A stretch of DNA of 64,000 nt from Phyllobates terribilis (GCF_046119375.1 NW_027362771.1:585032001-585096000); one strand, 5' to 3'. Positions 11,709 to 60,419 are shown, counted from the stretch's first letter. Notes: a model not told the origin generated them from the letters alone. A program made the numbers and translations.

Positions 11709-12742
11709 TATATTTTCTGTATCCATTCTCAACAGTTTTCAAGATCTCTGCTTGCTGTCATTGCATAGAAATTCCATCATTTTTTATTACCAGATGCTAC
11801 AAACCAGTTGTGGTTACAAGTCATAGCTCTGATAACTCGGCCAGCTGGGACATCATGGTCCATACTGGGACTGTGAAAGTCAGAAGGATCAAACTGGTCT
11901 TACTGTAATGAACCATGCAGCTGTTGGCAATAAGGTCTAGAAAGTGAGCCATAAGGGAGCTCATGGAGCCTAATCATGGAAGCAGGCGATGTTTGGTAGT
12001 ACCTATGGATTTAGCATGTGATCTCCTTATACCCCTAATCAAACCACTGCCAAATATATGACAAACCACATTTCCATTCGGAAATGCCTGATCGCTTCCA
12101 CCTTACTTGGGCTCCGTAAGGTGACGATTGGGCGACTCCAGCCTAAGTTACCTTCCTATCTTATTTACTCTTCCTAAGCAGATTATATCAGACTTCCATT
12201 GCTTTTCTCCTCCCTCTATCCACTGCGTGTTTTCCTTTCTCACATTCCTTGGTTAATTATTACCTCTTTTCTGATACTGATACCATTCTGATTTAGAGGT
12301 TATGCTAATTTATCAGCTCTTCGCCGGATGTCCACAGTCAGACTTGTTCCAAGCCGCTCAACTCAGTAGAGTTTAGGGGCGGTGCTCTGGTTCTTACCCT
12401 TTAACACCTATATATCGAAATCTGCAGGTACCCCTATATTGTATATGTAGAGTATCTGCCGACCGGGAACAGAACCTGAAAGACAGGGACAAGGACAAAA
12501 ATGCATCCAAATGTGTGCTCTGTGGAAGCCGGGTCACCGTCCAAGAAGTCAATCAGAATAAACAGGAGGAAAGGAGTCAGGTAGTCCAAAAGTCAAACCA
12601 GTTAGGGCATCCAAGGGTTAATTAGGAGAGAGCACCAATTAAAAAAGCACCATGGTGTTATCCAAAAGGTACAAAATGTTTTTTTCACTTAATACTTTTA
12701 GTCAACTTTTTACTGTGGAATTACCTTTAATAACAAGCTGAA

Positions 12743-15700
12743 CACCTGAGGACACCCCCTGTAAGAATACTAGGGTTATAATACCTGAAAACGCTCCATC
12801 TAAGTACACTAGGGTTACATCACCTGAGGACACCCCCTGTAAGAATACTAGGGTTATAATACCTGAAAACGCCCCATCTAAGTACACTAGGGTTACATCA
12901 CCTGAGGACACCCCCTGTAAGAATACTAGAGTTATAATACCTGAAAATGCCCCATCTAAGTACACTAGGGTTACATCACCTGAGGACACCTCCTGTAAGA
13001 ACACTAGGGTTATAATACCTGAAAACGCCCCATCTAAGTACACTAGGGTTACATCACCTGAGGACACCTCCTGTAAGTACACTAGGGTTATAATACCTGA
13101 AAACGCCCCATCTAAGTACACTAGGGTTACATCACCTGAGGACACCTCCTGTAAGTACACTAGGGTTATAATACCTGAAAACGCCCCATCTAAGTACACT
13201 AGGGTTAGATCACCTGAGGACACCCCCTGTAAGAATACTAGGGTTATAATACCTGAAAACGCCCCATCTAAGTACACTAGGGTTACATCACCTGAGGACA
13301 CCTCCTGTAAGAATACTAGAGTTATAATACCTGAAAATGCCCCATCTAAGTACACTAGGGTTACATCACCTGAGGACACCCCCTGTAAGAACACTAGGGT
13401 TATAATACCTGAAAACGCCCCATCTAAGTACACTAGGGTTACATCACCTGAGGACACCTCCTGTAAGAACACTAGGGTTATAATACCTGAAAACGCCCCA
13501 TCTAAGTACACTAGGGTTACATCACCTGAGGACACCTCCTGTAAGTACACTAGGGTTATAATACCTGAAAACGCCCCATCTAAGTACACTAGGGTTAGAT
13601 CACCTGAGGACACCCCCTGTAAGAATACTAGGGTTATAATACCTGAAAACGCCCCATCTAAGTACACTAGGGTTACATCACCTGAGGACACCCCCTGTAA
13701 GAACACTAGGGTTATAACACCTGAAAACGCCCATCCAAGTACTCTAGGGTTAGATCATCTGAGGACACCTCCTGTAAGAACACTAGGGTTATAATACCTG
13801 AAAACGCCCCATCTAAGTACACTAGGGTTATATCACCTGAGGACACCTCCTGTAAGAACACTAGGGTTATAATACCTGAAAACACCCCATCTAAGTACAC
13901 TAGGGTTACATCACCTGAGGACACCCCCTGTAAGAATACTAGGGTTATAATACCTGAAAACACCCCATCTAAGTACACTAGGGTTACATCACCTGAGGAC
14001 ACCCCCTGTAAGAATACTAGGGTTATAATACCTGAAAACACCCCATCTAAGTACACTAGGGTTACATCACCTGAGGACACCCCCTGTAAGAACACTAGGG
14101 TTATAATACCTGAAAATGCCCCATCTAAGTACACTAGGGTTACATCACCTGAGGACACCCCCTGTAAGAACACTAGGGTTATAATACCTGAAAATGCCCC
14201 ATCTAAGTACACTAGGGTTACATCACCTGAGGACACCCCCTGTAAGAATACTAGGGTTATAACACCTGAAAACGTCCCATCTAAGTACACTAGGGTTACA
14301 TCACCTGAGGACACCCCCTGTAAGTACACTAGGGTTATAACACCTGAAAACGCCCCATCTAAGTACACTAGGGTTAGATCACCTGAGGACACCCCCTGTA
14401 AGTACACTAGGGTTATAACACCTGAAAACACCCCATCTAAGTACACTAGGGTTACATCACCTGAGGACACCCCCTGTAAGAATACTAGGGTTATAATACC
14501 TGAAAACACCCCATCTAAGTACACTAGGGTTACATCACCTGAGGACACCCCCTGTAAGAACACTAGGGTTATAACACCTGAAAACGCCCCATCTAAGTAC
14601 ACTAGGGTTACATCACCTGAGGACACCCCCTGTAAGAATACTAGGGTTATAACACCTGAAAACGCCCCATCTAAGTACACTAGGGTTAGATCACCTGAGG
14701 ACACCCCCTGTAAGTACACTAGGGTTATAATACCTGAAAACACCCCATCTAAGTACACTAGGGTTACATCACCTGAGGACACCCCCTGTAAGAATACTAG
14801 GGTTATAATACCTGAAAACGCCCCATCTAAGTACACTAGGGTTAGATCACCTGAGGACACCCCCTGTAAGTACACTAGGGTTATAATACCTGAAAACACC
14901 CCATCTAAGTACACTAGGGTTACATCACCTGAGGACACCCCCTGTAAGAATACTAGGGTTATAATACCTGAAAACACCCCATCTAAGTACACTAGGGTTA
15001 CATCACCTGAGGACACCCCCTGTAAGAATACTAGGGTTATAACACCTGAAAACGCCCCATCTAAGTACACTAGGGTTACATCACCTGAGGACACCCCCTG
15101 TAAGAATACTAGGGTTATAATACCTGAAAACGCCCCATCTAAGTACACTAGGGTTACATCACCTGAGGACACCCCCTGTAAGTACACTAGGGTTATAACA
15201 CCTGAAAACGCCCCATCTAAGTACACTAGGGTTAGATCACCTGAGGACACCTCCTGTAAGTACACTAGGGTTATAACACCTGAAAACGCCCCATCTGAGT
15301 ACACTAGGGTTAGATCACCTGAGGACACCCCCTGTAAGAACACTAGGGTTATAACACCTGAAAACGCCCCATCTAAGTACACTAGGGTTACATCACCTGA
15401 GGACACCCCCTGTAAGAATACTAGGGTTATAATACCTGAAAACGCCCCATCTAAGTACACTAGGGTTACATCACCTGAGGACACCCCCTGTAAGAATACT
15501 AGGGTTATAATACCTGAAAACACCCCATCTAAGTACACTAGGGTTACATCACGTGAGGACACCCCCTGTAAGAATACTAGGGTTATAACACCTGAAAATG
15601 CCCCATCTAAGTACACTAGGGTTAGATCACCTGAGGACACCCCCTGTAAGAATACTAGGGTTATAACACCTGAAAACGCCCCATCTAAGTACACTAGGGT

Positions 15701-18380
15701 TAGATCACCTGAGGACACCCCCTGTAAGAATACTAGGGTTATAACACCTGAAAATGCCCCATCTAAGTACACTAGGGTTACATCACCTGAGGACACCTCC
15801 TGTAAGTACACTAGGGTTATAATACCTGAAAACGCCCCATCTAAGTACACTAGGGTTACATCACCTGAGGACACCCCCTGTAAGAATACTAGGGTTATAA
15901 CACCTGAAAACGCCCCATCTAAGTACACTAGGGTTAGATCACCTGAGGACACCCCCTGTAAGAACACTAGGGTTATAACACCTGAAAACGCCCCATCTAA
16001 GTACACTAGGGTTACATCACCTGAGGACACCCCCTGTAAGAATACTAGGGTTATAATACCTGAAAATGCCCCATCTAAGTACACTAGGGTTACATCACCT
16101 GAGGACACCCCCTGTAAGAACACTAGGGTTATAATACCTGAAAACAACCCATCTAAGTACACTAGGGTAACATCACCTGAGGACACCCCTTGTAAGAATA
16201 CTAGGGTTATAACACCTGAAAACGCCCCATCTAAGTACACTAGGGTTACATCACCTGAGGACACCTCCTGTAAGAATACTAGGGTTATAATACCTGAAAA
16301 CGCCCCATCTAAGTACACTAGGGTTACATCACCTGAGGACACCCCCTGTAAGAACACTAGGGTTAGATCACCTGAAAACGCCCCATCTAAGTACACTAGG
16401 GTTACATCACCTGAGGACACCCCCTGTAAGAATACTAGGGTTATAACAGGTGAAAACGCCCCATCTAAGTACACTAGGGTTAGATCACCTGAGGACACCC
16501 CCTGTAAGAATACTAGGGTTATAACACCTGAAAACGCCCCATCTAAGTACACTAGGGTTAGATCACCTGAGGACACCTCCTGTAAGTACACTAGGCTTAC
16601 ATCACCTGAGGACACCCCCTGTCAGTACACTAGGGTTATAACACCTGAAAACGCCCCATCTAAGTACACTGGGGTTACATCACCTGAGGACACCCCCTGT
16701 AAGTACACTAGGGTTACATCACCTGAGGACACCCCCTGTAAGTACACTAGGGTGATAACAGCTGAAAAAGTCCCATCTAATTACACTAGGGTTACATCAC
16801 CTGAGGACACCCCCTGTAAGTACACTAGGGTTATAACACCTGAAAACGCCCATCCAAGTACTCTAGGGTTAGATCATCTGAGGACACCTCCTGTAAGTAC
16901 ACTAGGGTTATAACAGGTGAAAACACCCCATCTAAGTACACTAGGGTTAGATCACCTGAGGACACCCCCTGTAAGAACACTAGGGTTATAATACCTGAAA
17001 AAGCCCCATCTAAGTACACTAGGGTTACACCACCTGAGGACACCCCCTGTAAGAATACTAGGGTTATAACAGGTGAAAACGCCCCATATAAGTACACTAG
17101 GGTTAGATCACCTGAGGACACCCCCTGTAAGAACACTAGGGTTATAATACCTGAAAAAGCCCCATCTAAGTACACTAGGGTTACACCACCTGAGGACACC
17201 CCCTGTAAGAATACTAGGGTTATAACACCTGAAAATGCCCCATCTAAGTACACTAGGGTTAGATCACCTGAGGACACCCCCTGTAAGTACACTAGGGTTA
17301 TAACACCTGAAAACGCCCCATCTAAGTACACTGGGGTTACATCACCTGAGGACACCCCCTGTAAGTACACTAGGGTTATAATACCTGAAAACGCCCCATC
17401 TAAGTACACTAGGGTTACATCACCTGAGGACACCCCCTGTAAGAATACTAGGGTTATAACACCTGAAAATGCCCCATCTAAGTACACTAGGGTTAGATCA
17501 CCTGAGGACACCCCCTGTAAGTACACTAGGGTTATAACACCTGAAAACGCCCCATCTAAGTACACTGGGGTTACATCACCTGAGGACACCCCCTGTAAGT
17601 ACACTAGGGTGATAACAGCTGAAAAAGTCCCATCTAATTACACTAGGGTTACATCACCTGAGGACACCTCCTGTAAGAACAATAGGGTTATAACACCTGA
17701 AAACGCCCCATCTAAGTACACTGGGGTTACATCACCTGAGGACACCCCCTGTAAGTACACTAGGGTGATAACACCTGAAAACGCCCCATCTAAGTACACT
17801 AGGGTTACATCACCTGAGGACACCCCCTGTAAGAACACTAGGGTTATAACAGGTGAAAACGCCCCATCTAAGTACACTAGGGTTACATCACCTGAGGACA
17901 CCCCCTGTAAGAACACTAGGGTTATAACAGGTGAAAACGCCCCATCTAAGTACACTAGGGTTACATCACCTGAGGACACCCCCTGTAAGAATACTAGGGT
18001 TATAATACCTGAAAACACCCCATCTAAGTACACTAGGGTTACATCACCTGAGGACACCCCCTGTAAGAATACTAGGGTTATAACAGGTGAAAACGCCCCA
18101 TCTAAGTACACTAGGGTTAGATCACCTGAGGACACCTCCTGTAAGAATACTAGGGTTATAATACCTGAAAACGCCCCATCTAAGTACACTAGGGTTACAT
18201 CACCTGAGGACACCCCCTGTAAGAATACTAGGGTTATAACAGGTGAAAACGCCCCATCTAAGTACACTAGGGTTAGATCACCTGAGGACACCCCCTGTAA
18301 GAATACTAGGGTTATAACAGGTGAAAACGCCCCATCTAAGTACACTAGGGTAACATCACCTGAATACGCCGCTTCTAGGT
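12743..18380. repeat. Satellite of 39-bp monomers arranged as a 78-bp dimeric higher-order repeat (~145 monomers)
   Basis: Monomer A tagggttacatcacctgaggacaccccctgtaagaatac alternates with monomer B tagggttataatacctgaaaacgccccatctaagtacac. The ORF track shows a 26-aa period. Confidence 0.97.
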
Positions 18381-19745
18381 TGTGACGGCGGTGGGTGTTG
18401 ACCCACTGTGACACTGCACTAGCTTACCCTGGAGGGGCATGACTAAGTGGCTACCCAGTTTCCGCTAGAGCCTCTGATGGTGAGGATAGGCTTGGGTCAT
18501 TAGGGTAGCCACAAGGTGCCACTCCAGGGCAGAGCCCAGACCTTCAGCAATTTCCCAACGGGTCAAGTCAGAGATACCTAACCTGAAGATGCCGCCTCAA
18601 AGTACACTAGGGCTAGAACATCTGAGGACGCCCCCTCTAAGTACACTAGTGTTAGATCACCTGAAGATGCCCCCTCTAAGTACACAAGGGTTAAATCAAC
18701 TGAAGATGCCCCCTCTAAGTACACAAGGGTTAGATCACCTGAAAACGCCCCCTCTAAGTACACAAGGGTTAAATCAACTGAAGACGCCCCCTCTAAGTAC
18801 ACAAGGGTTAGATCACCTGAAGACGCCCCCTCTAAGTACACAAGGGTTAGATCACCTGAAAACGCCCCCTCTAAGTACACAAGGGTTAAATCAACTGAAG
18901 ACGCCCCCTCTAAGTACACAAGGGTTAGATCACCTGAAGACGCCCCCTCTAAGTACACTAGGGTAACATCACCTGAATACGCCGCTTCTAGGTTGTGACG
19001 GCGGTGGGTGTTGACCCACTGTGACACTGCACTAGCTTACCCTGGAGGGGCATGACTAAGTGGCTACCCAGTTTCCGCTAGAGCCTCTGATGGTGAGGAT
19101 AGGCTTGGGTCATTAGGGTAGCCACAAGGTGCCACTCCAGGGCAGAGCCCAGACCTTCAGCAATTTCCCAACGGGTCAAGTCAGAGATACCTAACCTGAA
19201 GATGCCGCCTCAAAGTACACTAGGGCTAGAACATCTGAGGACGCCCCCTCTAAGTACACTAGTGTTAGATCACCTGAAGATGCCCCCTCTAAGTACACAA
19301 GGGTTAAATCAACTGAAGATGCCCCCTCTAAGTACACAAGGGTTAGATCACCTGAAAACGCCCCCTCTAAGTACACAAGGGTTAAATCAACTGAAGATGC
19401 CCCCTCTAAGTACACAAGGGTTAGATCACCTGAAGACGCCCCCTCTAAGTACACAAGGGTTAAATCAACTGAAGATGCCCCCTCTAAGTACACAAGGGTT
19501 AAATCAACTGAAGACGCCCCCTCTAAGTACACAAGGGTTAGATCACCTGAAGACGCCCCCTCTAAGTACACAAGGGTTAGATCACCTGAAAACGCCCCCT
19601 CTAAGTACACAAGGGTTAAATCAACTGAAGACGCCCCCTCTAAGTACACAAGGGTTAGATCACCTGAAGATGCCCCCTCTAAGTACTCTAAGGTTAGGTC
19701 AAGTGAGGACGCCCCCTCTAAGTACACTAGAGTTAGATCACCTCA
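18349..19745. repeat. 613-bp tandem duplication of a ~210-bp unique insert plus variant 39-bp monomers
   Basis: The segment tgtgacggcggtgggtgttg...cagagatacc occurs at ~18383 and ~18996 (offset 613). It is followed by 39-bp variants cctctaagtacacaagggttagatcacctgaagacgccc. Confidence 0.9.
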
Positions 19746-19917: not shown

Positions 19918-21541
19918 CAGTACAGACCAAAAGTTTGGACACACCTTTAAAGATTTTTCTGTATTTTCATGACTATGAAAATTGTACACTCACACTGAAG
20001 GCATCAAAACTATGAATTAACACATGTGGAATTATATACTTAACAAAAAAGTGTGAAACAACTGAAAATATGTCTTATATTCTAGGTTCTTCAAAGTAGC
20101 CACCTTTTGCTTTGATGACTGCTTTGCACACTCTTGGCATTCTCTTGATGAGCTTCAAGAGGTAGTCACCGGAAATGGTTTTCACTTCACAGGTGAGCCC
20201 TGTCAGGTTTAATAAGTGGGATTTCTTGCCTTATAAATGGGGTTGGGACCATTAGTTGTGTTGTGCAGAAGTCTGGTTGATACACAGCTGATAGTCCTAC
20301 TGAATAGACTGTTAGAATTTGTATTATGGCAAGAAAAAAGCAGCTAAGTAAAGAAAAACGAGTGGCCATCATTACTTTAAGAAATGAAGGTCAGTCAGTC
20401 CGAAAAATTGGGAAAACTTTGAAAGTGTCCCCAAGTGCAGTTGCAAAAACCATCAAGCGCTACAAAGAAACTGGCTCACATGAAGACCGCCCCAAGAAAG
20501 GAAGACCAAGAGTCACCTCTGCTTCTGAGGATAAGTTTATCCGAGTCACCAGCCTCAGAAATCGCAGGTTAACAGCAGCTCAGATTAGAGACCAGGTCAA
20601 TGCCACACAGAGTTCTAGCAGCAGACACATCTCTTCAACAACTGTTAAGAGGAGACTTTGTGCAGCAGGCCTTCATGGTAAAATAGCTGCTAGGAAACCA
20701 CTGCTAAGGACAGGCAACAAGCAGAAGAGACTTGTTTGGGCTAAAGAACACAAGGAATGGACATTAGACCAGTGGAAATCTGTGCTTTGGTCTGATGAGT
20801 CCAAATTTGAGATCTTTGGTTCCAACCACCGTGTCTTTGTGCGACGCAGAAAAGGTGAACGGATGGACTCTACATGCCTGGTTCCCACCGTGAAGCATGG
20901 AGGAGGAGGTGTGATGGTGTGGGGGGGCTTTGCTGGTGACACTGTTGGGGATTTATTCAAAATTGAAGGCATACTGAACCAGCATGGCTACCACAGCATC
21001 TTGCAGCGGCATGCTATTCCATCCGGTTTGCGTTTAGTTGGACCATCATTTATTTTTCAACAGGACAATGACCCCAAACAAACCTCCAGGCTGTGTAAGG
21101 GCTATTTGACCAAGCAGGAGAGTGATGGGGTGCTACGCCAGATGACCTGGCCTCCACAGTCACCAGACCTGAACCCAATCGAGATGGTTTGGGGTGAGCT
21201 GGACCGCAGAGTGAAGGCAAAAGGGCCAACAAGTGCTAAGCATCTCTGGGAACTCCTTCAAGATTGTTGGAAGACCATTTCCGGTGACTACCTCTTGAAG
21301 CTCATCAAGAGAATGCCAAGAGTGTGCAAAGCAGTCATCAAAGCAAAAGGTGGCTACTTTGAAGAACCTAGAATATAAGACATATTTTCAGTTGTTTCAC
21401 ACTTTTTTGTTAAGTATATAATTCCACATGTGTTAATTCATAGTTTTGATGCCTTCAGTGTGAATGTACAATTTTCATAGTCATGAAAATACAGAAAAAT
21501 CTTTAAATGAGAAGGTGTGTCCAAACTTTTGGTCTGTACTG
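19918..21541 (+). mobile_element. Full-length Tc1-like transposon, DD38E (Intruder-type)
   Basis: TA TSDs at 19916-17 and 21542-43. ~265-bp TIRs (19918-20179 and 21274-21541) start CAGTACAGACCAAAAGTTTGGACACACC. They differ by one 6-bp indel and very few substitutions. Confidence 0.95.
20326..21378 (+). CDS. Tc1-family transposase, 350 aa, uninterrupted, DD38E
   Basis: Paired-like HTH with GRPR, plus WSDE, VKHGGG-WG, QQDND and SPDLNPIE motifs. There are 38 residues between the second catalytic D and the E (counted). Confidence 0.93.
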   Translation: MARKKQLSKEKRVAIITLRNEGQSVRKIGKTLKVSPSAVAKTIKRYKETGSHEDRPKKGRPRVTSASEDKFIRVTSLRNRRLTAAQIRDQVNATQSSSSRHISSTTVKRRLCAAGLHGKIAARKPLLRTGNKQKRLVWAKEHKEWTLDQWKSVLWSDESKFEIFGSNHRVFVRRRKGERMDSTCLVPTVKHGGGGVMVWGGFAGDTVGDLFKIEGILNQHGYHSILQRHAIPSGLRLVGPSFIFQQDNDPKQTSRLCKGYLTKQESDGVLRQMTWPPQSPDLNPIEMVWGELDRRVKAKGPTSAKHLWELLQDCWKTISGDYLLKLIKRMPRVCKAVIKAKGGYFEEPRI

Positions 21542-31978: not shown

Positions 31979-46119
<14,141 letters not shown>

Positions 46120-50167: not shown

Positions 50168-51428
50168 GGCATGGTGGAGCAGGAGCTACTGGCCATGAAG
50201 AAGAACTAGGTATGGCAGAGAAGTGACTACTGGGCATGAAGAAGGACTTAGGCATGGTGGAGCAGTGACTACCGGCCATGAAAAAGAACTAGGCATGGTG
50301 GAGCAGTGACTACTGGCCATGACGGAGCAGTGACTACTGGCCATGAAGAAGGACAGGGCATGACGCAGCAGTGACTACCGGTCATGAAGAAGGATTAGGC
50401 ATGGTGGAGCAGTGACTACCGGCCATGAAGAAGGACTAGGCATGGTGGAGCATTGACTCCTGGCCATGAAGAAGGACTAGGCATGGCGAAGCAGTGACTA
50501 CCGGCCATGAAAAAGGACTAGGCATGCTGGAGCAGTGCCTACTGGCCATGAAGAAGGACTGGGCATGACGCAGCAGTGACTACTGGTCATGAAGAAGGAT
50601 TAGGCATGGTGGAGCAGTGACTACCGGCCATGAAGAAGGACTGGGCATGACGGAGCAGTGACTACTGGCCATGAAGAAGGACTGGGCATGACGGAGCAGT
50701 GACTACTGGCCATGAAGAAGGACTGGGCATGACGGAGCAGTGACTATTGGCCATGACGGAGCAGTGACTACTGGCCATGAAGAAGGACAGGGCATGACGC
50801 AGCAGTGACTACCGGTCATGAAGAAGGATTAGGCATGGTGGAGCAGTGACTACCGGCCATGAAGAAGGACTAGGCATGGTGGAGCATTGACTCCTGGCCA
50901 TGAAGAAGGACTAGGCATGGCGAAGCAGTGACTACCGGCCATGAAAAAGGACTAGGCATGCTGGAGCAGTGCCTACTGGCCATGAAGAAGGACTGGGCAT
51001 GACGCAGCAGTGACTACTGGTCATGAAGAAGGATTAGGCATGGTGGAGCAGTGACTACCGGCCATGAAGAAGGACTGGGCATGACGAAGCAGTGACTACT
51101 GGGCATGACGGAGCAGTGACTACTGGCCATGAAGAAGGACTGGGCATGACACAGCAGTGACTACCGGCCATGAAGGAGGACTGGGCATGACGGAGCAGTG
51201 ACTACTGGCCATGAAGAAGGACTGGGCATGACGGAGCAGTGACTACTGGCCATGAAGAAGGATTAGGCATGGTGGAGCAGTGACTACCGGCCATGAAGAA
51301 GGACTAGGCATGGCGAAGCAGTGACTATTGGCCATGAAAAAGGACTAGACATGGTGGAGGAGTGACTACCGGTCATGAAGAAGGACTAGGCATGATGGAA
51401 CAGTGACTACCGGCCATGAAGGACTAGG
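50168..51428. repeat. 41-bp tandem array (~30 units) with a 434-bp higher-order duplication
   Basis: Unit gaagaaggactaggcatggtggagcagtgactaccggccat. The diagnostic variant ggacagggcatgacgcagc occurs at 50351 and 50785. Confidence 0.93.
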
Positions 51429-52099
51429 TTGCTGCATAGAAGATCTGCACGGCCCAAGATGGGAGCGAATGATCTGCTCCAGCCAGGGACACTGATTATG
51501 ACCTATGGATGATGATCCTTCATGTGGACCAGAATATTCAGTGCTTCATAGATATAGGCAGGGTGGTGTCTATGGCACAGTGGTCTGGTATGTCTCCCAT
51601 GAAATATGAAGTATGTGACCTACATCCCTGAGAAAGTTGTAAAAAGCAGCCATTATATCTACTGCTGTTCTAGGCCCCAGTACAGGAGTACGGACCGGTC
51701 ATAGGTCTAAGCCAAACTCAGCACCCACATATGCTGAGTACAAGCTGCGGAGTTGGGGTCGGGGTCCCTGCGGCCGGTCTGGACATTGCCGTCTGTACTC
51801 AGACCGTGAATGTCGGATGTGTGATACCCTGGCCACATGTTGCCACCGATATGGCTGCTGTAAGTCCAGCTCATTATCTGCAGGCCGATTTGCTGTTTGT
51901 TTATCTCTTAAAAATGATGAATTCGTTTGACAAATCCGTGGCGTAAATATGTGCCAAGTGTGAATTCGGCCTTATGGAGGTGTCTGGGTCCGCCAGCTCG
52001 TAATGTCCTTCATGGCATCTCTGCTGGAGAGTTATTATGTTGTGCCAAGTTTAGGGCCTAAAATCTACAGGTGACAACTCCACATGAGCAGTATAGGGG

Positions 52100-52132
<33 letters not shown>

Positions 52133-52151
52133 TGTATATGTATGTATGTAT

Positions 52152-53058
52152 TGTAAGGCAGCGCTAGTCATCATACTGGGGGTAACTCGCTTCGCTGCGT
52201 CAATCAATGCACACGTGCAATGTCTTTACCTTTTTCACACAGTGTTGCAGTTTATTATGGCACTTCATAAACCGCTGTTCACACACAGTTCATCTTAGTC
52301 CGCCACCGGCAGGTTTACACACAAACAATTCATGAGCCAAGTGGCACACCGGCCCACTTGCTCCAGGGTACAGCTTACGGCAAGGTAATAAAGTAGCAAT
52401 GTTCATATCACAATGTCCATATAGCACCGGGTATTACCTTTGCCAGGTATAGCTGTCTCAGTCCGTTACTCTGCCACCACTGTGGCTCTGCGGCTTCCCA
52501 GGTAGGGGTCTCCAGCCGTCGTTCCCTCAAAGGCCACTGACATCCACACAGGATCCAGGCTCTGCCTTCCAGGAGTCTTACTCAAGCCGGCTCTCCCTCA
52601 AAGGCCACTGACATCCGCACAGGATCCAGGCTCGACCTTTCAGGTACCAGGCTTCACTTCAAAGCCGCTGCCTTCCAAGGCCACTAGCATCCGCACAGGA
52701 TCTAGTCTTTGCCTTCAGGCTGCCAGGCTTCACGGTATCCCGGTATCCCACACACATGGGGAACAGGCCTCACGCCTCTCACACCGAACACACCTGTCTC
52801 AAATTAAGCAGGTTTATATATGCTGTGCACAGACAGCCTCATACTGACAGGACCTTGCTGATGTCACAGTCATGTGATCAGTCAGCTGTGTGTATAGGTC
52901 CTGTGTGCTGTCCCAGTCATGTATACAGAGCTTTACTGTGCATGCAGGACCTGGGTGATGTCACAGTCATGTGACCAGTCAGATAAAGGGGAAGGTACAT
53001 GGTCCAGTAAGCACATCCTGGACCATTTACAGTAATGCTAGCAACCTGCTGCATTACA
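52152..53058 (-). repeat. 3' LTR (907 bp)
   Basis: TG...CA ends. Minus-strand TATATAAA (~52812-52820) and AATAAA (52251-52256). Confidence 0.95.
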
Positions 53059-53076
53059 TATCCCCCCTCTCTGTTC
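53059..53076 (-). other. Polypurine tract
   Basis: Minus strand GAACAGAGAGGGGGGATA immediately precedes the 3' LTR start TGTAATG. Confidence 0.85.
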
Positions 53077-53159
53077 AAACTTGTGGGGTTGAACACATAA
53101 TATACACAATAACATTATAACCCCCAGCTCACATATAGACCATGAACTTTACAATTGTG

Positions 53160-55883
53160 CTACTCAGCCCCTGGAACCTTAGTCAATGACATTAGCCCAT
53201 TCCTTAGGGACCTACCATTTGTCACTGTCACTGACTTCGTCAGGTCACCTTTCCGGGTTGTAACTTTGTCAGGTCTCCCCCGCTCCCAGCGGTCAATCAA
53301 AACCCTGTCAGGTCTTCCCCGCTCCCAGCGGTCAATACAGCAGCGCGACTCGCATGCCCCGGTATCTAAGGTCCGGTTCGACTCCGTACTGTCCCGTCCT
53401 CTATTGGGTCGTTTGTATGGGCTGCTCAAACCGGAGTTACTGGAGGTCTCACTACCTCTAAACCCACGCCCACTACTCTCAGGACATCCTAAAAGGTCCC
53501 TAACTTCAGCTGTAGCTGTTCTGTTATTTAGGCGGCCCTTTCTCTGTCGGGTCTCACTATTTCTAGACGGCTTCCATCTTCTGCTGCTCAGATGATGCTG
53601 TCTATCTACTCGCAGTCTAGCGAGATTCAATTGTTCTACCTCCTGCAGGCAGGTCACTCGGTACTCAATCAGCATGCGTATATATTCTAGGCTTTCTTCT
53701 GTTCCTACCGCGGAAAAGGACACCATGCCGTCTTTGTCTGGTATCCAGTCCTGTTGATCACGTGGACTGCTTACTTTCACCACACCAGACTTCTTGACCA
53801 TCATCTGCATGGCTCGACCGCTTCTCCCAATGAGCTTTCTCACCAGAACATGAGGCACCCGGATGACCTCTTCACGCATACTGTGAGCTTTTCTCCTAAG
53901 CTCCAGTTGTCTAACGGCTTGTTCCGTCTTCAACAGGAGAAACCGCTTCGTGCGAACACATCGCCAGTGCATGTCACTTAGGATAGCCACCCTCTTCACT
54001 GTGACTTTGGTCGTGGACAGGACCACCAGCTGTTTAGTTTCTGAGGTCAAGTAGACCTTACAGGCTCCCACAGCCTTCTTAAACTCTTCATGCACGGACT
54101 CACGGGTGCATTCTTCCCTCAAGTCCTCGGGTACTTCTACGAGGCACTTGTACCGAGACGTTTCGGTCTCACCAGTGGTTTCCAGACGATCAACCAGCTC
54201 AGGTTTCAGGAACAACTGACTTCCAGCTTCTTCACCCTGGATGCTTCCCCTGAGCTGACTCACAGCTACCACTTCACAACTTTTCGTCTTGACCACCTCC
54301 ACTTCACCTTTATCTTCCAACACCATACTTTTAGCTCTCCTCAGGTCCTCCTTCTCAGGGTCTAAGGGAGTAAGTGCAACTTGTTTGCCTTTTCCCTTCT
54401 CCAAGGAGACCTCGTTCACCACGTGACACTTTGCTAGGCGACCTTTGAGCTCTAAAACTTCTCCTTCCAGCTCAGTTACTCGCCTCTCAGCGGCCCGTCT
54501 CTGAAGCTCTTCCTGCTTCAACTGCTCTTCCAGCAGCAGAGCTCTCTCAGACCTCTCCGTCTCCAATGTGCCCACTCGGCGCTCAATAGCCAGTCTCTCA
54601 CGCTTCTCTTGCGTCCACTGGGTTTGTAGCAACTCCTTGAGCTCCCTGATCTCGGCTCTTACTTCCACCGAATCATCCAAGCTCGCATCACTCGAGGAGG
54701 TATCTGTTTCACACCTCCCCTCACCAGCGGCCAACTCCTGGCCCTGGTCTGTGGCTTCTCTGACGGACTCCTCCATCTTTTTCCGCTCAGCTTCCATCTT
54801 GCTGACTGTTTCTTTAAGGCACGTCTCCGCCCTCTGGAGAGTATCACAGGACATCTGTAGCTCCTTCACCTGAGCTTCCAGATCTAGGGTCTTTCCACGG
54901 AGACCATCATTCTCCTCACGGGTGTCTTGCAGAGTGGTCTCAACCACTTGGCGCACTTGCTCTGCACCCGCCTTATCCTCCTCTAGTTTTTCCTTCACCT
55001 TGAGGAGATCTTCATAATCTCTCTTACTCTGTTGCAGTTCCCTACTGCGTTCACTACACACCTTCTTGGAGTCACACAGCTCCTGGTTGAGCTGTTTGCG
55101 CAGTCGTTCTAGGATTTGTTCACGTCCAGAAACACCATCCTGCCGCGCCTCCTTCTCAAGCTTCAACTGCAAAACCTCTTCCTTGATTTTGCGGCGGTCC
55201 TCCTTAATTGCGTAGAACATTTCCTTCCAATGGTTAATTTCCGCGTTGCTTCCCTCCACGTCTCGCTGCCAGTTCCTCATAACCTGGTATATTTTCTGCT
55301 GTTCAGACTCCAGGTTCAGCTGGTCTGCGGACACGTCACTCTGACACTGTTGCCTGATAGGCTCCAGTTCCTGGTCATGACTGGCCACCTTCTCTTTCGG
55401 GTCTGTCAGATCCTGATCCGTCAGTCTCAGTACCGTACCGGAGGTTGCTACTGGAAACGTCACCTCCTCTTCTACCTCTAAAGGAGGATCCACACTTGAA
55501 GCATAGGCACACAGTACTACATTCTTTTTATTTTCATTTTCAGCCAAGTCTACAGGAGCAACCTTTTTGTGGCCCTTGCGCCGTCTACGAGATGGGGACT
55601 CTCTCACCTCGTCTAGCCCCTCCTGACTGAACTCACTTTTTACTTTCATAGTGTCACAGTCAGCTACGGGGTCTGTGTCACTACCCATGGTGTTGTGGAC
55701 TAACAGGTCACCTCCCACTTTGACTTCACCCCCTTCTACTGGAGTTACCCCGTTATCAACGGTCACATTGTCATTTTTAGGAGGCACCAACCCACCAACA
55801 GTAACAATTTTCAGTTTTCTACACTCCACACTCGTGAAAATCCACCCCTTTTTTAGACTCCGCCCCCTTTTTAACAACCACAC
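53160..55883 (-). CDS. Chimeric cargo ORF: coiled coil (cingulin-like) + FXR1-derived KH0/KH2/C-terminal fragment; 907 codons open (842 aa from the first ATG at 55688)
   Basis: Open with no introns. aa ~577-762 align with recalled FXR1 (VPEDLRE, FKKAVGAC, TVKRV.ILSDMH, K.IGRSG...KSGVV, DGMV, LQEVEQL). aa ~831-846 DSTESNRTLDTGACES matches FXR1 DNTESDQTADTDASES. aa ~284-385 align without gaps to the recalled cingulin rod. Confidence 0.85.
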   Translation of the reverse strand: MWLLKRGRSLKKGWIFTSVECRKLKIVTVGGLVPPKNDNVTVDNGVTPVEGGEVKVGGDLLVHNTMGSDTDPVADCDTMKVKSEFSQEGLDEVRESPSRRRRKGHKKVAPVDLAENENKKNVVLCAYASSVDPPLEVEEEVTFPVATSGTVLRLTDQDLTDPKEKVASHDQELEPIRQQCQSDVSADQLNLESEQQKIYQVMRNWQRDVEGSNAEINHWKEMFYAIKEDRRKIKEEVLQLKLEKEARQDGVSGREQILERLRKQLNQELCDSKKVCSERSRELQQSKRDYEDLLKVKEKLEEDKAGAEQVRQVVETTLQDTREENDGLRGKTLDLEAQVKELQMSCDTLQRAETCLKETVSKMEAERKKMEESVREATDQGQELAAGEGRCETDTSSSDASLDDSVEVRAEIRELKELLQTQWTQEKRERLAIERRVGTLETERSERALLLEEQLKQEELQRRAAERRVTELEGEVLELKGRLAKCHVVNEVSLEKGKGKQVALTPLDPEKEDLRRAKSMVLEDKGEVEVVKTKSCEVVAVSQLRGSIQGEEAGSQLFLKPELVDRLETTGETETSRYKCLVEVPEDLREECTRESVHEEFKKAVGACKVYLTSETKQLVVLSTTKVTVKRVAILSDMHWRCVRTKRFLLLKTEQAVRQLELRRKAHSMREEVIRVPHVLVRKLIGRSGRAMQMMVKKSGVVKVSSPRDQQDWIPDKDGMVSFSAVGTEESLEYIRMLIEYRVTCLQEVEQLNLARLRVDRQHHLSSRRWKPSRNSETRQRKGRLNNRTATAEVRDLLGCPESSGRGFRGSETSSNSGLSSPYKRPNRGRDSTESNRTLDTGACESRCCIDRWERGRPDRVLIDRWERGRPDKVTTRKGDLTKSVTVTNGRSLRNGLMSLTKVPGAE

Positions 55884-56154
55884 CGGCAGGGTAATTTTTA
55901 CACAAAAAATCTGCAGTAGTCTTAGGACTCAGTTCACAACATCTCTTACCACCTCCCCGGGCACTCTGGGACAACACTGGCGCCCCCGGAGAGTCCATAG
56001 AATGGTCCACTGCAGCCATTCCATATGGTGCCCACAGCTCCTGCGGTTCCTGCACCATGTCCAGAAAAAGTTTCCCAAATACCTGCTCCGGTCCCAACCG
56101 GTCCTTCAACCGCTCAATAGCTCCAGACAGATCTGCTGCTTTGCTCACAGCCAT
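55819..56154 (-). CDS. 111-aa upstream ORF overlapping the cargo ORF in another frame (possible N-terminal part of it)
   Basis: ATG at 56154 lies ~230 nt after the 5' LTR. It overlaps the main ORF across A/G homopolymer runs. Confidence 0.45.
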   Translation of the reverse strand: MAVSKAADLSGAIERLKDRLGPEQVFGKLFLDMVQEPQELWAPYGMAAVDHSMDSPGAPVLSQSARGGGKRCCELSPKTTADFLCKNYPAGVVVKKGAESKKGVDFHECGV

Positions 56155-56363
56155 CGCGGTACACTGTTCACACTAGCACTTCATCGCTCTCCCGGAAAAA
56201 TTTTCGTGGCCCCACCAAGCCACCGCAAAACGGGATTTGAGTGCGATGAGAATCTTCGCAACCCCGCCGAGTTGCCGCAAGATGCTTTATCCACACTCGT
56301 CGTCCTGTGCCGTTGCCCCTAGCAACCGGGGTTGTCGTTGCCACTAGCAACCGGGCTGCCGTT

Positions 56364-56381
56364 GCCCGCACTCTCGAACCA
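56364..56381 (-). other. Primer-binding-site-like sequence (atypical)
   Basis: TGGTTCGAGAGTGCGGGC starts 2 nt after the end of the 5' LTR. Confidence 0.55.
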
Positions 56382-56383
56382 TA

Positions 56384-57292
56384 TGTAAGGCAGCGCTAGT
56401 CATCATACTGGGGGTAACTCGCTTCGCTGCGTCAATCAATGCACACGTGCAATGTCTTTACCTTTTTCACACAGTGTTGCAGTTTATTATGGCACTTCAT
56501 AAACCGCTGTTCACACACAGTTCATCTTAGTCCGCCACCGGCAGGTTTACACACAAACAATTCATGAGCCAAGTGGCACACCGGCCCACTTGCTCCAGGG
56601 TACAGCTTACGGCAAGGTAATAAAGTAGCAATGTTCATATCACAATGTCCATATAGCACCGGGTATTACCTTTGCCGGGTATAGCTGTCTCAGTCCGTTA
56701 CTCCGCCACCACTGTGGCTCTGCGGCTTCCCAGGTAGGGGTCTCCAGCCGTCGTTCCCTCAAAGGCCACTGACATCCACACAGGATCCAGGCGCTGCCTT
56801 CCAGGACTCTTACTCAAGCCGGCTCTCCCTCAAAGGCCACTGACATCCGCACAGGATCCAGGCTCGACCTTTCAGGTACCAGGCTTCACTTCAAAGCCGC
56901 TGCCTTCCAAGGCCACCAGCATCCGCACAGGATCTAGTCTTTGCCTTCAGGCTGCCAGGCTTCACGGTATCACGGTATCCCACACACACATGGGGAACAG
57001 GCCTCACGCCTCTCACACCGAACACACCTGTCTCAAATTAAGCAGGTTTATATATGCTGTGCACAGACAGCCTCATACTGACAGGACCTTGCTGATGTCA
57101 CAGTCATGTGATCAGTCAGCTGTGTGTATAGGTCCTGTGTGCTGTCCCAGTCATGTATACAGAGCTTTACTGTGCATGCAGGACCTGGGTGATGTCACAG
57201 TCATGTGACCAGTCAGATAAAGGGGAAGGTACATGGTCCAGTAAGCACATCCTGGACCATTTACAGTAATGCTAGCAACCTGCTGCATTACA
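56384..57292 (-). repeat. 5' LTR (909 bp)
   Basis: Differs from the other LTR by about six substitutions and one CA indel (by eye). Confidence 0.95.
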
Positions 57293-57363
57293 GTATATAT
57301 ATATGAACAGTATAGGAACATCACAGGCTGTGTATATAGATATGTATGTGTATGTGTATATAT

Positions 57364-58622
57364 ACGAGGGGCGTTCATTAAAGATTTCCCCTGACCCTCT
57401 TCTATTTATCACAGGATGCTAAAATTTCACATGTATAATGATATAAGTCTCTATAGGTTACGTGCCAATTTGCAGCTCAGAACTGATTACGGTCTTGATG
57501 TTACAGGTGCTGAAGTGGTGTGAGGTTTGATAATGGACCCAGTCATCAAGTTCCTGTACTTGAAAGGTCGCACCCCAGAGGAGACGTTCGATGACATGAA
57601 AGAGGTTTATGGTGATGATTCCCCATCAGATCATGTAGTCAAGAACTGGCATCGTCAATTGAAATGTGGTCGGACTTCGGTGCAAACAGTTCCAATTCCA
57701 GAGCGACCCCCATTCTGCTATTGAACACACCATTCAGCAAGTGGAAGTCGCCATTTTGGAAAATTGCAGCGTAACCATTCGCCATCTAGCCCAAAATGTC
57801 AAGATTAGTGTGGGGTCTGTGGAAAAAAATCATCCAAGACCATCTTCACATGCATAAGCTATCCGCTTGCTGGGTTCCCCGGCTGCTCGCACCTTTCCAG
57901 AAGCAAGAACGAGTCGAATGCTCTCAGGCTCAATTGACGATGTGCCATGGAAACCAGGAGGACTTTTACAACAGACTGATCACACAGAATGAAAGCTAAG
58001 TCCATCACTATGATCCTGAGACTAAAGTCCAGTCGATGCAATAGAAGCATCATGACTCACCGCCTCCAAAGAAGGCTGGTGGCCAACCCTCGGCAGGCCA
58101 GGTCATGCGCACAGTATTTTTGGACCAGCACGGAGTAGTATTGATGGATTTCCTAGCAAAGGGTACCATGATCACTGGGGCATACTATGCTTCACTGCTG
58201 CGGAAATTGCAGGAGGCCTTCAAAACCAAGAGACGTGGCATGTTCACCAAAGATGTCCGCCTTCTGCAAGACAATGCACCAGTTCACAACTCACATGATG
58301 CCAAAATGGAAGCTGCTCCTGTGGCTTTGAAATTGTACCGCACCCCCCTTATTCACCCGGCCTCGCACCATCGGACTTCCACCTCTTTCCCACAATGAAG
58401 TTATTTTTGAAGGACAAGCATTTTCCAGATGATGAGACTCTGATTTCCAAAGTCACAACGTGGCTTTTGGAGCAACCTGACAACTTCTACAAGCGAGGTG
58501 TTTACAGCTGCTTAAAGAGAGGGGGGAAGTGTGTGTCCTTAGGTGGCACCTATGTAGGAAAGGACTAATAACTGTGCCAAGTTTCATTGCTCTCAGTCCA
58601 CAGGAAGTGGGTCAGGGGCCAG
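57364..58622 (+). pseudogene. Decayed mariner (DD34D-type) transposon
   Basis: 5' end TA|CGAGGGGCGTTCATTAAAG. Remnant motifs WVPRLL, HHYDPE, LQDNAPVH and HPPYSP.LAPSDF across frameshifts and stops (~57533-58568). Confidence 0.88.
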
Positions 58623-58793: not shown

Positions 58794-60419
58794 GCACCCC
58801 TATTAATCTTCAGCTTATTGTTTTATATAAATTGGTGTTTTTGCACCAGCTATTTCAGCTTGATATATGTAATAACTGTTGGACACAGTAATGGTTCTGC
58901 CTTGAAATGAGGTTTATTGTACTAACAGAAAATGTGCAATCTGCATTCAAACAAAATTTGACAGGTGCATAAGTATGGGCACCTCACCAGAAAAGTGACA
59001 TTAATATTAAGTAGATCCTCCTTTTGCAAAAATAACAGCCTCTAGTCGCTTCCTGTAGCTTTTAATGAGTTCCTGGATCCTGGATGAAGGTATTTTTGAC
59101 CATTCCTCTTTACAAAACAATTCCAGTTCAGTTAAGTTTGATGGTCGCCGAGCATGGACAGCCCTCTTCAAATGATCCCACAGATGTTCAATGATATTCC
59201 GGTCTGGGGACTGGGATGGCCATTCCAGAACATTGTAATTGTTCCTCTGCATGAATGACTGAGTAGATTTGGAGCGGTGTTTTGGATCATTGTCTTGCTG
59301 AAAGATCCATCCCCTGCGTAACTTCAACTTTATCACCGATTCTTGAACATTATCGTCAAGAATCTGCTGATACTGAGTGGAATCCATGCGTCCCTCAACT
59401 TTAACAAGATTCCCGGTGCCGGCATTGGCCACACAGCCCCAAAGCATGATGGAACCTCCACCAAATTTTACTGTGGGTAGCAAGTGTTTTTCTTGGAATG
59501 CTGTGTTTTTTTGCCGCCATGCATAACGCCTTTTTGTATGACCAAACAACTCAATCTTGGTTTCATCAGTCCACAGGACCTTCTTCCAAAAAGAAATTGG
59601 CTTCTCCAAATGTGCTTTTGCATACCTCAGCCGACTCTGTTTGTGGCGTGCTTGCAGAAACGGCTTCTTTCGCATCACTCTCCCATACAGCTTCTCCTTG
59701 TGCAAAGTGCGTTGTATAGTTGACCGATGCACAGTGACACCATCTGCAGCAAGTTGATGCTGCAGCTCTCTGGAGGTGGTCTGAGGATTGTCCTTGACTG
59801 ATCTCACCATTCTTCTTCTCTGCCTTTCTGATGTTTTTCTTGGCCTGCCACTTCTGGCCTTAACAAGAACTGTCCCTGTGTTCTTCCATTTCCTTACTAT
59901 GTTCCTCACAGTGGAAACTGACAGGTTAAATCTCTGAGACAGCTTTTTGTATCCTTCCCCTGAACAACTATGTTGAATAACCTTTGTTTTCAGATCATTT
60001 GACAGTTGTTTTGAGGAGCCCATGATGCCACTCTTCAGTGGAGATTCAAACAGGAGAACAACTTGCAAGTGGCCACTTTAAGTAGCTTTTCTCATGATTG
60101 CATACACCTGGTTATGGAGTTCAAAGCTCAATGAGGTTACAAAACCAAAAAAAGTGCTGTAGTAAGTCAGTAAAAAGCAGGTAGGAGTATTTAAAACAAG
60201 AAAATGATAAGGGTGCCCATACTTATGCACCTGTCAAATTTTGTTTGAATGCAGATTGCACATTTTCTGTTAGTACAATAAACCTCATTTCAAGGCCGAA
60301 ACATTACTGTGTCCAACAGTTATTACATATATCAAAGTGAAATAGCTGTTGCAAAAACACCAATTTTTATAAAACATTAAGCTTAAGATTAATAGGGGTG
60401 CCCAAACTTTTTCATATAA

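Follow-up and report, generated by a model that had tools for sequence, protein, structure and literature searches.

A captured FXR1 KH0 domain held by selection in a poison-frog retrotransposon, and its possible use in RNA transport

What is a fragment of FXR1, a protein of the fragile X family, doing without one of its KH domains in a long open reading frame (ORF) of the poison frog Phyllobates terribilis? The question is raised by a 64,000-nt stretch of that genome (GCF_046119375.1 NW_027362771.1:585032001-585096000; hereafter the window), in which a preliminary description recognized an FXR1-derived module with KH0 and KH2 but no KH1 and interpreted it as a dominant negative or decoy able to associate with host FXR1 and FMRP. 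The FXR1 origin, the retention of KH0 and KH2, and the net loss of one KH domain all stand. That interpretation missed, however, that the module is the cargo of a young non-autonomous long terminal repeat (LTR) retrotransposon, that it is fused to pieces of cingulin and LONP1, and that the RGG box has been lost as well. Here we show that KH0 is under purifying selection in the element lineages that replicated, and we tentatively propose that the element protein uses this domain to hook its own RNA onto BICD2-dynein transport.

The element occupies 5,141 bp of the minus strand (52152-57292; Table 1). Paired TG...CA LTRs with a target-site duplication, a tRNA primer site with a polypurine tract, and dispersed copies identify it as a non-autonomous LTR retrotransposon. 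Pfam-type domain scans of its proteins revealed no gag/pol, SCAN, protease, reverse transcriptase, or integrase of its own, and the element contains no retroviral gag, pol, or env domains that would make it an endogenous retrovirus; Rfam gave 0 matches. The LTRs of the window copy differ by 6 substitutions over 907 aligned nt (Kimura two-parameter distance 0.0066). Among 40 fetched sister copies, LTR ends could be parsed in 15, with pairs 0-0.8% apart and 4-bp target-site duplications in 14 of the 15; none of 20 older copies could be parsed. A genome search in which 150 of 4,394 first-look candidates were scored returned matches that were all 93-100% identical over the module, many of them in frames of about 1,000 codons. 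The genome thus holds at least 150 near-identical copies and probably thousands. Each element has a single ORF of about 1000 aa in open-frame copies, which is frameshifted in the window copy. Among named proteins, a 998-aa record of Phyllobates terribilis is closest (98%), and from it the start of the family ORF was placed at 56154. Five longer copies bear unrelated insertions or rearrangements within the element (their ORFs were read by eye only). No RNA data set was listed as carrying the element. Contigs from four runs in two studies cover all 30 bins; their RNA status is a guess, hence they carry no evidence on expression either way. Some smaller features of the family were also seen. Each LTR contains a 64-nt direct repeat in three copies, at spacings of 71 and 76 nt (52510-52720 and 56742-56952), and near the ORF end (53210-53330, minus strand) a 13-codon tandem unit, DRWERGRPDRVLI, varies in number from copy to copy, mostly in 39-nt steps. 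At L025/L026 and at G000:C1:1165490734-1165499972, the element is arrayed head to tail at distances of about 3-4.4 kb.

The single ORF fuses pieces of three host mRNAs, namely the cingulin rod, LONP1, and FXR1 (KH0-CC1-KH2-CC2, where CC1 and CC2 are coiled coils). When the first 330 aa were used as the query, 16 proteins were returned, and all 10 that were looked up were named cingulin or cingulin-like. In older copies, up to seven cingulin blocks match consecutive host exons at 83-97% nucleotide identity, and these exons are joined in the element across host introns of up to ~6.3 kb. The mapped exons of host fxr1 are likewise continuous in the element, which runs through the exon joints without introns and therefore derives from mRNA. 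The LONP1 piece is a short stretch of the mitochondrial Lon protease, and host LONP1 exons were not located within the 120 kb fetched. Residues ~1-240 and 478-550 of the ORF found no source in Pfam, PDB sequences, or 50% representatives, and the Atlas gave leads only (best 0.89 and 0.79). Synonymous divergence (dS) from the host is 0.13-0.30 for cingulin and above 1.2 for FXR1 in all 17 copies compared (near saturation and therefore rough), so FXR1 was captured first.

Pfam places KH_9 (the KH0 of FMRP) at residues 513-593 of the 842-aa ORF (E 6e-26) and KH_1 at 607-673, with a weak FXMRP1_C_core match, and solved FMRP structures match both KH parts. The preliminary description had put KH0 at about residues 577-661 and at about half identity to FXR1; the domain is confirmed, and when the ORF is counted from its ATG the positions shift by 64. 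The module is 52% identical to FXR1, 46% to FMR1, and 41% to FXR2 of the same genome, and a tree nests it within frog FXR1, which bears out the proposed donor. Similarity to FXR1 starts at about host residue 121-127. The GxxG loop of KH2 is kept, as had been noted, in the form GRSG. Also as described before, Agenet/Tudor domains are absent, with no family match in either of the two proteins scanned. The segment upstream of KH0 was considered as a decayed Tudor region and rejected: its alignment to FXR1 1-124 does not rise above shuffles (p 0.2), and the segment is LONP1. A second deletion, of about host residues 440-505, takes out the RGG box. What remains is KH0, CC1, KH2 with its GxxG, CC2, and part of the C-terminal core; missing Tudor, KH1, and RGG box, the protein falls short of a full FXR family member, and it further differs from FXR1 in having no introns, in sitting behind cingulin and LONP1 pieces, and in being mobile. 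AlphaFold2 (28-row alignment) predicted both KH folds, intact and with one long helix between them (predicted local distance difference test, pLDDT, 85; predicted template modeling score 0.47), in line with the monomer check proposed earlier. The predicted KH0 superposes on 4OVA at 1.0 Å over 77 columns. CC1 is the most diverged segment, with 4 of 16 residues identical to the host.

The preliminary description called KH1 precisely excised. KH1 is indeed gone, and the gap relative to frog FXR1 is 63 aa net, which equals the distance from the GxxG of KH1 to that of KH2, or one KH spacing. At the DNA level, however, a single in-register excision is rejected: of the 21 nt in the seven-codon linker, 4-6 agree with host codons 211-217, as opposed to 11-14 with codons 211-213 plus 274-277 (all 52 linkers, 57 loci). 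In addition, KAHS in the linker matches KARS of exon 9 at 10 of 12 nt (p 0.0035). The loss is best read from these alignments as two cuts, of 60 and 3 aa, close to the ends of exon 8 without coinciding with them, which answers the earlier question of how the junction relates to fxr1 exon boundaries. Clean skipping of exon 8 (host 211-267) is also rejected, as it would leave 13 linker residues and 7 are present. An alternative with the 5' cut at the end of exon 7 and re-entry at 271 scores almost as well (11-13 of 21 nt). KH1 is missing in 40 of 40 loci and in each of the 14 loci with a module out of 17 retrieved through the primer site, and a search of the genome for KH1 matched only three host genes.

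Relatives of the module give the capture some depth in time. Four "FXR1-like" records from Anomaloglossus have no Tudor domain and keep KH1, in which the GTHG loop has become ALRR, ALRS, or SLRS in all four. These copies group with the element inside frog FXR1 (100/97, with long branches), and 20 of 51 doubly changed residues are shared by the element and the Anomaloglossus copies, where 4.5 are expected. A single old FXR1 capture common to both is therefore likely. KH1 may then have been inactivated first and deleted later in the Phyllobates lineage, an order we infer from the state of KH1 in the two groups. A search for non-FXR1 sequence common to the element and the Anomaloglossus copies was negative for P0049 and P0050 and gave p 0.046 for P0041 only, and this candidate was set aside. 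Protein searches returned no KH1-less relative outside the Phyllobates records, which is not absence given that annotation usually masks repeats. A separate observation concerns a Carassius record annotated ZBED1 (P0048), in which Agenet and KH0 are fused to a BED-finger protein; it may reflect a separate fusion of FXR to a transposon or an error in the gene model.

Does the element make use of its cargo? In a first codon-model set (31 of 40 other copies, identified through their similarity in KH0-KH2), omega on inner branches was 0.29 for KH0 (p 0.002), 0.67 for KH2 and its helix (p 0.34), and 0.9-1.2 for the non-FXR parts; two thirds of the ORF evolve at an omega near 1. Because this set had been found through KH0-KH2, the selection test was redone on a set hand-picked among the hits of an N-terminal search, which comprised 39 copies after removal of one of 40 whose coordinates were wrong. 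Shared variants of KH0 in these copies number 12 nonsynonymous and 23 synonymous (pN/pS 0.20, p 4e-6), as opposed to 28 and 13 for private variants (0.84). Shared variants of the non-FXR part number 180 and 76 (0.90), which differs from KH0 at p 3e-5, and the KH0 effect persists without CpG sites (6/18 versus 139/64, p 6e-5). KH0 is therefore under purifying selection in the lineages that replicated. Its synonymous count is also high, which suggests a deeper or recombinant ancestry of KH0. Indels follow the same division, with 17 of 21 shared indels in frame versus 11 of 27 private ones (p 0.008). In comparison with the host gene, KH0 has a nonsynonymous divergence (dN) of ~0.2 at a dS of 1.3-3.4, one copy being saturated, and KH2 a dN of 0.40-0.60 at a dS above 1.2, which indicates that both domains were constrained in the past, KH0 most. 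Decay is neutral after insertion but constraint acts along replicating lineages, a pattern suggesting that these lineages need the protein and that it helps the copies that make it. Since inherited indels mostly keep the frame, the benefit is probably in cis rather than that of a freely shared decoy. The distinction between private and shared replication goods has been framed elsewhere (PMC13558583) and is not used as evidence here.

These data also bear on two explanations in which the element gains nothing from KH0. The host fragments could be filler, with a long frame that only shields the RNA from nonsense-mediated decay and a KH0 conserved through limits on folding or toxicity or through past host function. 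The two thirds of the ORF near neutrality and the in-frame indels, which fit decay avoidance, speak for such a passenger, and LTR retrocopies that re-transpose passively are known (PMC5131818, in the portion drawn on here). This reading leaves unexplained, however, why amino-acid constraint against the non-FXR part is specific to KH0 and why KH0 has kept so low a dN since capture when the neighboring folded KH2 is freer. These points disfavour it, and we regard it as quite improbable. Alternatively, one or a few copies could serve the frog as a domesticated retrogene, with the family as a by-product. RefSeq includes gene models of the Anomaloglossus copies and of a single family member (XP_073527937.1), but the constraint falls on variants inherited across dispersed young insertions, private variants are neutral, and the LTR pairs are nearly identical. 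We consider host domestication very improbable indeed.

Which property of KH0, then, is being preserved? A bioRxiv preprint reports, in the part available to us, that FXR1 127-199 is essential for binding to BICD2-CC3 and that FXR1 with BICD2 activates dynein (10.64898/2026.09.25.754448). The FXR1 similarity of the element starts at this region and the constraint falls there, and for these reasons we favor a role as transport adaptor. The element protein may hook its own RNA onto BICD2-dynein transport via the captured KH0, acting in cis, a proposal that we place somewhat short of an even chance. The element would be transcribed from its LTR in the germ line, and newly made protein would remain with the encoding RNA, on the polysome or via KH2. 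KH0 would engage BICD2, and this contact would carry the element RNA towards the nucleus or to sites of helper-particle assembly. KH1 and the RGG box would be dispensable, or harmful by loading host mRNAs, and the cingulin rod would be a spacer or dimerising stalk whose exact sequence carries little weight. Two published observations suit this setting: poison-frog ova express gypsy elements at high levels (PMC6278860), and the RNA of the Drosophila I factor rides Egl-BicD-dynein in oogenesis (PMC6056234). The fuller history, in which a retrotransposon parasite would have taken FXR1 before the Phyllobates-like/Anomaloglossus split, stripped its host-RNA-binding parts, later added the cingulin rod, come to use KH0 in the germ line to pull its own RNA along dynein, and multiplied to thousands of copies within a genome of 10 Gb, is plausible and on balance rather doubtful as a whole.

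Several observations count against the adaptor proposal. KH2 is not significantly constrained among recent copies in either set (0.68, p 0.35; omega 0.67, p 0.34), and tethering of the RNA by KH2 is therefore unsupported for today's lineages. Conservation relative to the host is 16 of 26 residues in the predicted interface (176-201) and 32 of 49 in the rest of KH0; since the interface is no more conserved than its surroundings, the data show that the fold is kept and not which partner it serves. Four of the 21 shared indels shift the frame. The copies were hand-picked and non-random, and recombination among them can inflate "shared" counts. The BICD2 preprint concerns human proteins and is not peer reviewed, and as far as its text was consulted it makes the KH0 interface necessary, not sufficient, with FXR-dynein binding through unmapped sites (10.64898/2026.09.25.754448). 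Finally, the link between element and helper, discussed below, consists of short shared ends only.

The decoy of the preliminary description can be restated with the new data. CC1-CC2 would let the protein form dimers with host FXR1/FMR1, and because Tudor, KH1, and RGG are missing from it, the FXR-dependent repression of retroelement RNA would be poisoned. It has both coiled coils, and according to the portion of a bioRxiv preprint that we used (10.1101/2023.11.05.565677), FXR1 requires CC1 and CC2 to dimerise and to form its network, while the Tudor domains are dispensable. RNA-binding parts have been lost or inactivated in both lineages, including the KH1 GxxG destroyed in 4 of 4 Anomaloglossus copies, and CC2 has no shared amino-acid change (0 nonsynonymous, 1 synonymous; tiny numbers). 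The heterodimer check proposed earlier, a complex prediction with FXR1 120-385, lent weak support with a score of 0.58 versus 0.01 for the best of three controls; runs agreed in at least 85% of contacts, the partner pLDDT was at least 77, and alignments were not used. The mark for such predictions was attained by 51 of the 78 solved pairs and by 2 of the 108 mismatched ones, and at 0.60 or below by only 5 solved pairs and all 4 passing mismatches. The pass may also stem from likeness to solved FMRP structures. Fly FMR1 is tied to silencing by PIWI-interacting RNAs in the passages of two reviews that were seen (PMC5454977, PMC6381874), whereas FXR-dependent gypsy silencing in frogs was not found in the literature consulted. 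Further difficulties are that CC1 is the most diverged region, that the clear selection signal sits on the KH0 fold, and that a diffusible decoy is a shared good, which accounts less readily for how seldom broken copies have descendants. We judge the decoy unlikely, if still worth serious attention.

A third use would draw on the same contacts. KH0 and the coiled coils could enrol the element RNA in host FXR1 condensates for germ-cell storage or translational activation, which would raise its stability or bring it together with helper RNA, and no motor would be involved. The selection on KH0 and the frame-keeping indels suit this granule recruitment too, as does the weakly positive complex prediction. 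The accessible part of the FXR1 network preprint adds that coiled-coil domains suffice to recruit clients to the network, and this could also account for the cingulin rod (10.1101/2023.11.05.565677). The near-neutral cingulin part among recent copies (0.96-0.98) weighs against it, and we hold this explanation to be improbable.

Searching for the LTR end together with the primer site returned 1,312 matches, the first 30 of which comprised 14 older family members and 16 others. Six ORFs from those 16 non-family loci matched SCAN, zinc knuckle, protease, integrase, and reverse transcriptase. In the candidate helper, L214, integrase lies ahead of reverse transcriptase and RNase H, an order that is the hallmark of Gmr1 elements. 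The primer site, LTR end, and purine-tract region are common to the element and this Gmr1-like gypsy family, from which the element differs in lacking gag, SCAN, and pol and in an LTR body that cannot be aligned to that of the helper. tRNA-Ala(AGC) genes with a complementary end fit the variant of the primer site found in sister copies. Gag and Pol may be supplied by a SCAN-Gag Gmr1-like helper that would mobilise the element. SCAN is present in over half of frog Gmr elements, according to the part of that survey consulted (PMC4131045). Two side observations belong here. The tRNA-Ala motif has 318 matches genome-wide, and nearly all of the 100 listed fall in a tandem array of tRNA genes (Ala, Met, Asn) with a unit of ~1.32 kb (L219, G000:C3:6543028-6546046). 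Older copies L192 and L197 (L167) have a Q-rich repeat near the ORF start that loosely resembles the Q-rich start of the helper gag, without alignment support.

The closest known counterpart is maize Bs1 and other chimeric retrocopies made through LTR elements. As described in the portion of PMC5131818 seen, Bs1 is non-autonomous, combines spliced, incomplete sequence from three host genes into a single hybrid frame, and arose in a class of events with multiple template switches and further rounds of retroposition. The frog element shares all of these features, with intron-less partial copies of host mRNAs (FXR1, cingulin) between its LTRs. It differs in its vertebrate host, its stepwise build, its domain-specific selection, and its copy number (Bs1 has 1-5 copies), and the same portion describes no selfish use of the Bs1 cargo (PMC5131818). 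The likeness to the Drosophila I factor lies in the proposed outcome, retroelement RNA carried by BicD-dynein; there an RNA signal is read by a host adaptor (PMC6056234, as far as seen), whereas the frog element would encode its own host-derived adaptor. No description of this element family was found in the open literature (titles and abstract starts). Selection has held a host-derived domain here from a time before the separation of two poison-frog lineages, and this is evidence that the element is served by a captured cellular fragment, much as captured genes serve viruses. To our knowledge, non-autonomous LTR elements have been assumed to need no protein. The family also provides a natural deletion series of a fragile-X-family protein, in which Tudor, KH1, and RGG were dropped and KH0 was kept, and it singles out the least understood domain. 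The work may further bear on the abundance of gypsy-type DNA in poison-frog genomes.

Table 1. Features of the window copy of the element, in transcript order between the target-site duplications
Feature	Position	Strand	Remarks
Target-site duplication GTAT, right	57293..57296		4 bp
5' LTR	56384..57292	-	909 bp, TG...CA; direct repeat with 52152-53058
Primer-binding site	56363..56381	-	variant of the tRNA-Ala(AGC) site borne by sister copies and the Gmr1-like family
5' end of family ORF, starts MAVSK	55833..56154	-	severed in the window copy by a frameshift near 55,830
Main open frame	53160..55928	-	922 aa between stops; 842 aa when counted from ATG 55688
Cingulin coiled-coil rod, captured, spliced	54729..55432	-	six blocks match host exons, 77-88% nt
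LONP1 (mitochondrial Lon protease) fragment, just before AAA domain	54231..54359	-	E 0.002 for window; E 5e-11 for family member P0189
KH0 (host 127-201)	53928..54152	-	under purifying selection
CC1 helix and KH1-deletion junction	53880..53927	-	net 63 aa, best read as 60+3 aa
KH2 (host 281-359)	53643..53879	-	GxxG loop GRSG at 53828-53817
CC2 helix (EVEQL...; host 360-380)	53580..53642	-	
Second deletion junction, RGG box removed, then DSTESNRTLDTGACES (~host 510-525)	53346..53426	-	
Polypurine tract region	53049..53095	-	~47 bp, 90-94% match to autonomous Gmr1-like family (3/3 helper-type loci)
3' LTR	52152..53058	-	907 bp
Target-site duplication GTAT, left	52148..52151		4 bp

The surroundings of the element in the window contain further repeats and part of a host gene. 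An exon of a transportin (karyopherin-beta2) gene lies at 33852-33995 on the plus strand (E 9e-21 to transportin-1 residues 215-259), and the element may lie antisense in a downstream intron of this gene. Long tandem arrays of short units at 12700-18420 and 50500-51430 contain stop-free frames of up to 1,062 codons. Broken mariner-like transposase sequence, recognized by eye, adjoins the 5' LTR at 57500-58200 (plus strand). Two unbroken frames of 340-350 aa, at 20326-21378 (plus strand) and 59007-60023 (minus strand), are ones that we take to resemble Tc1-type transposases.

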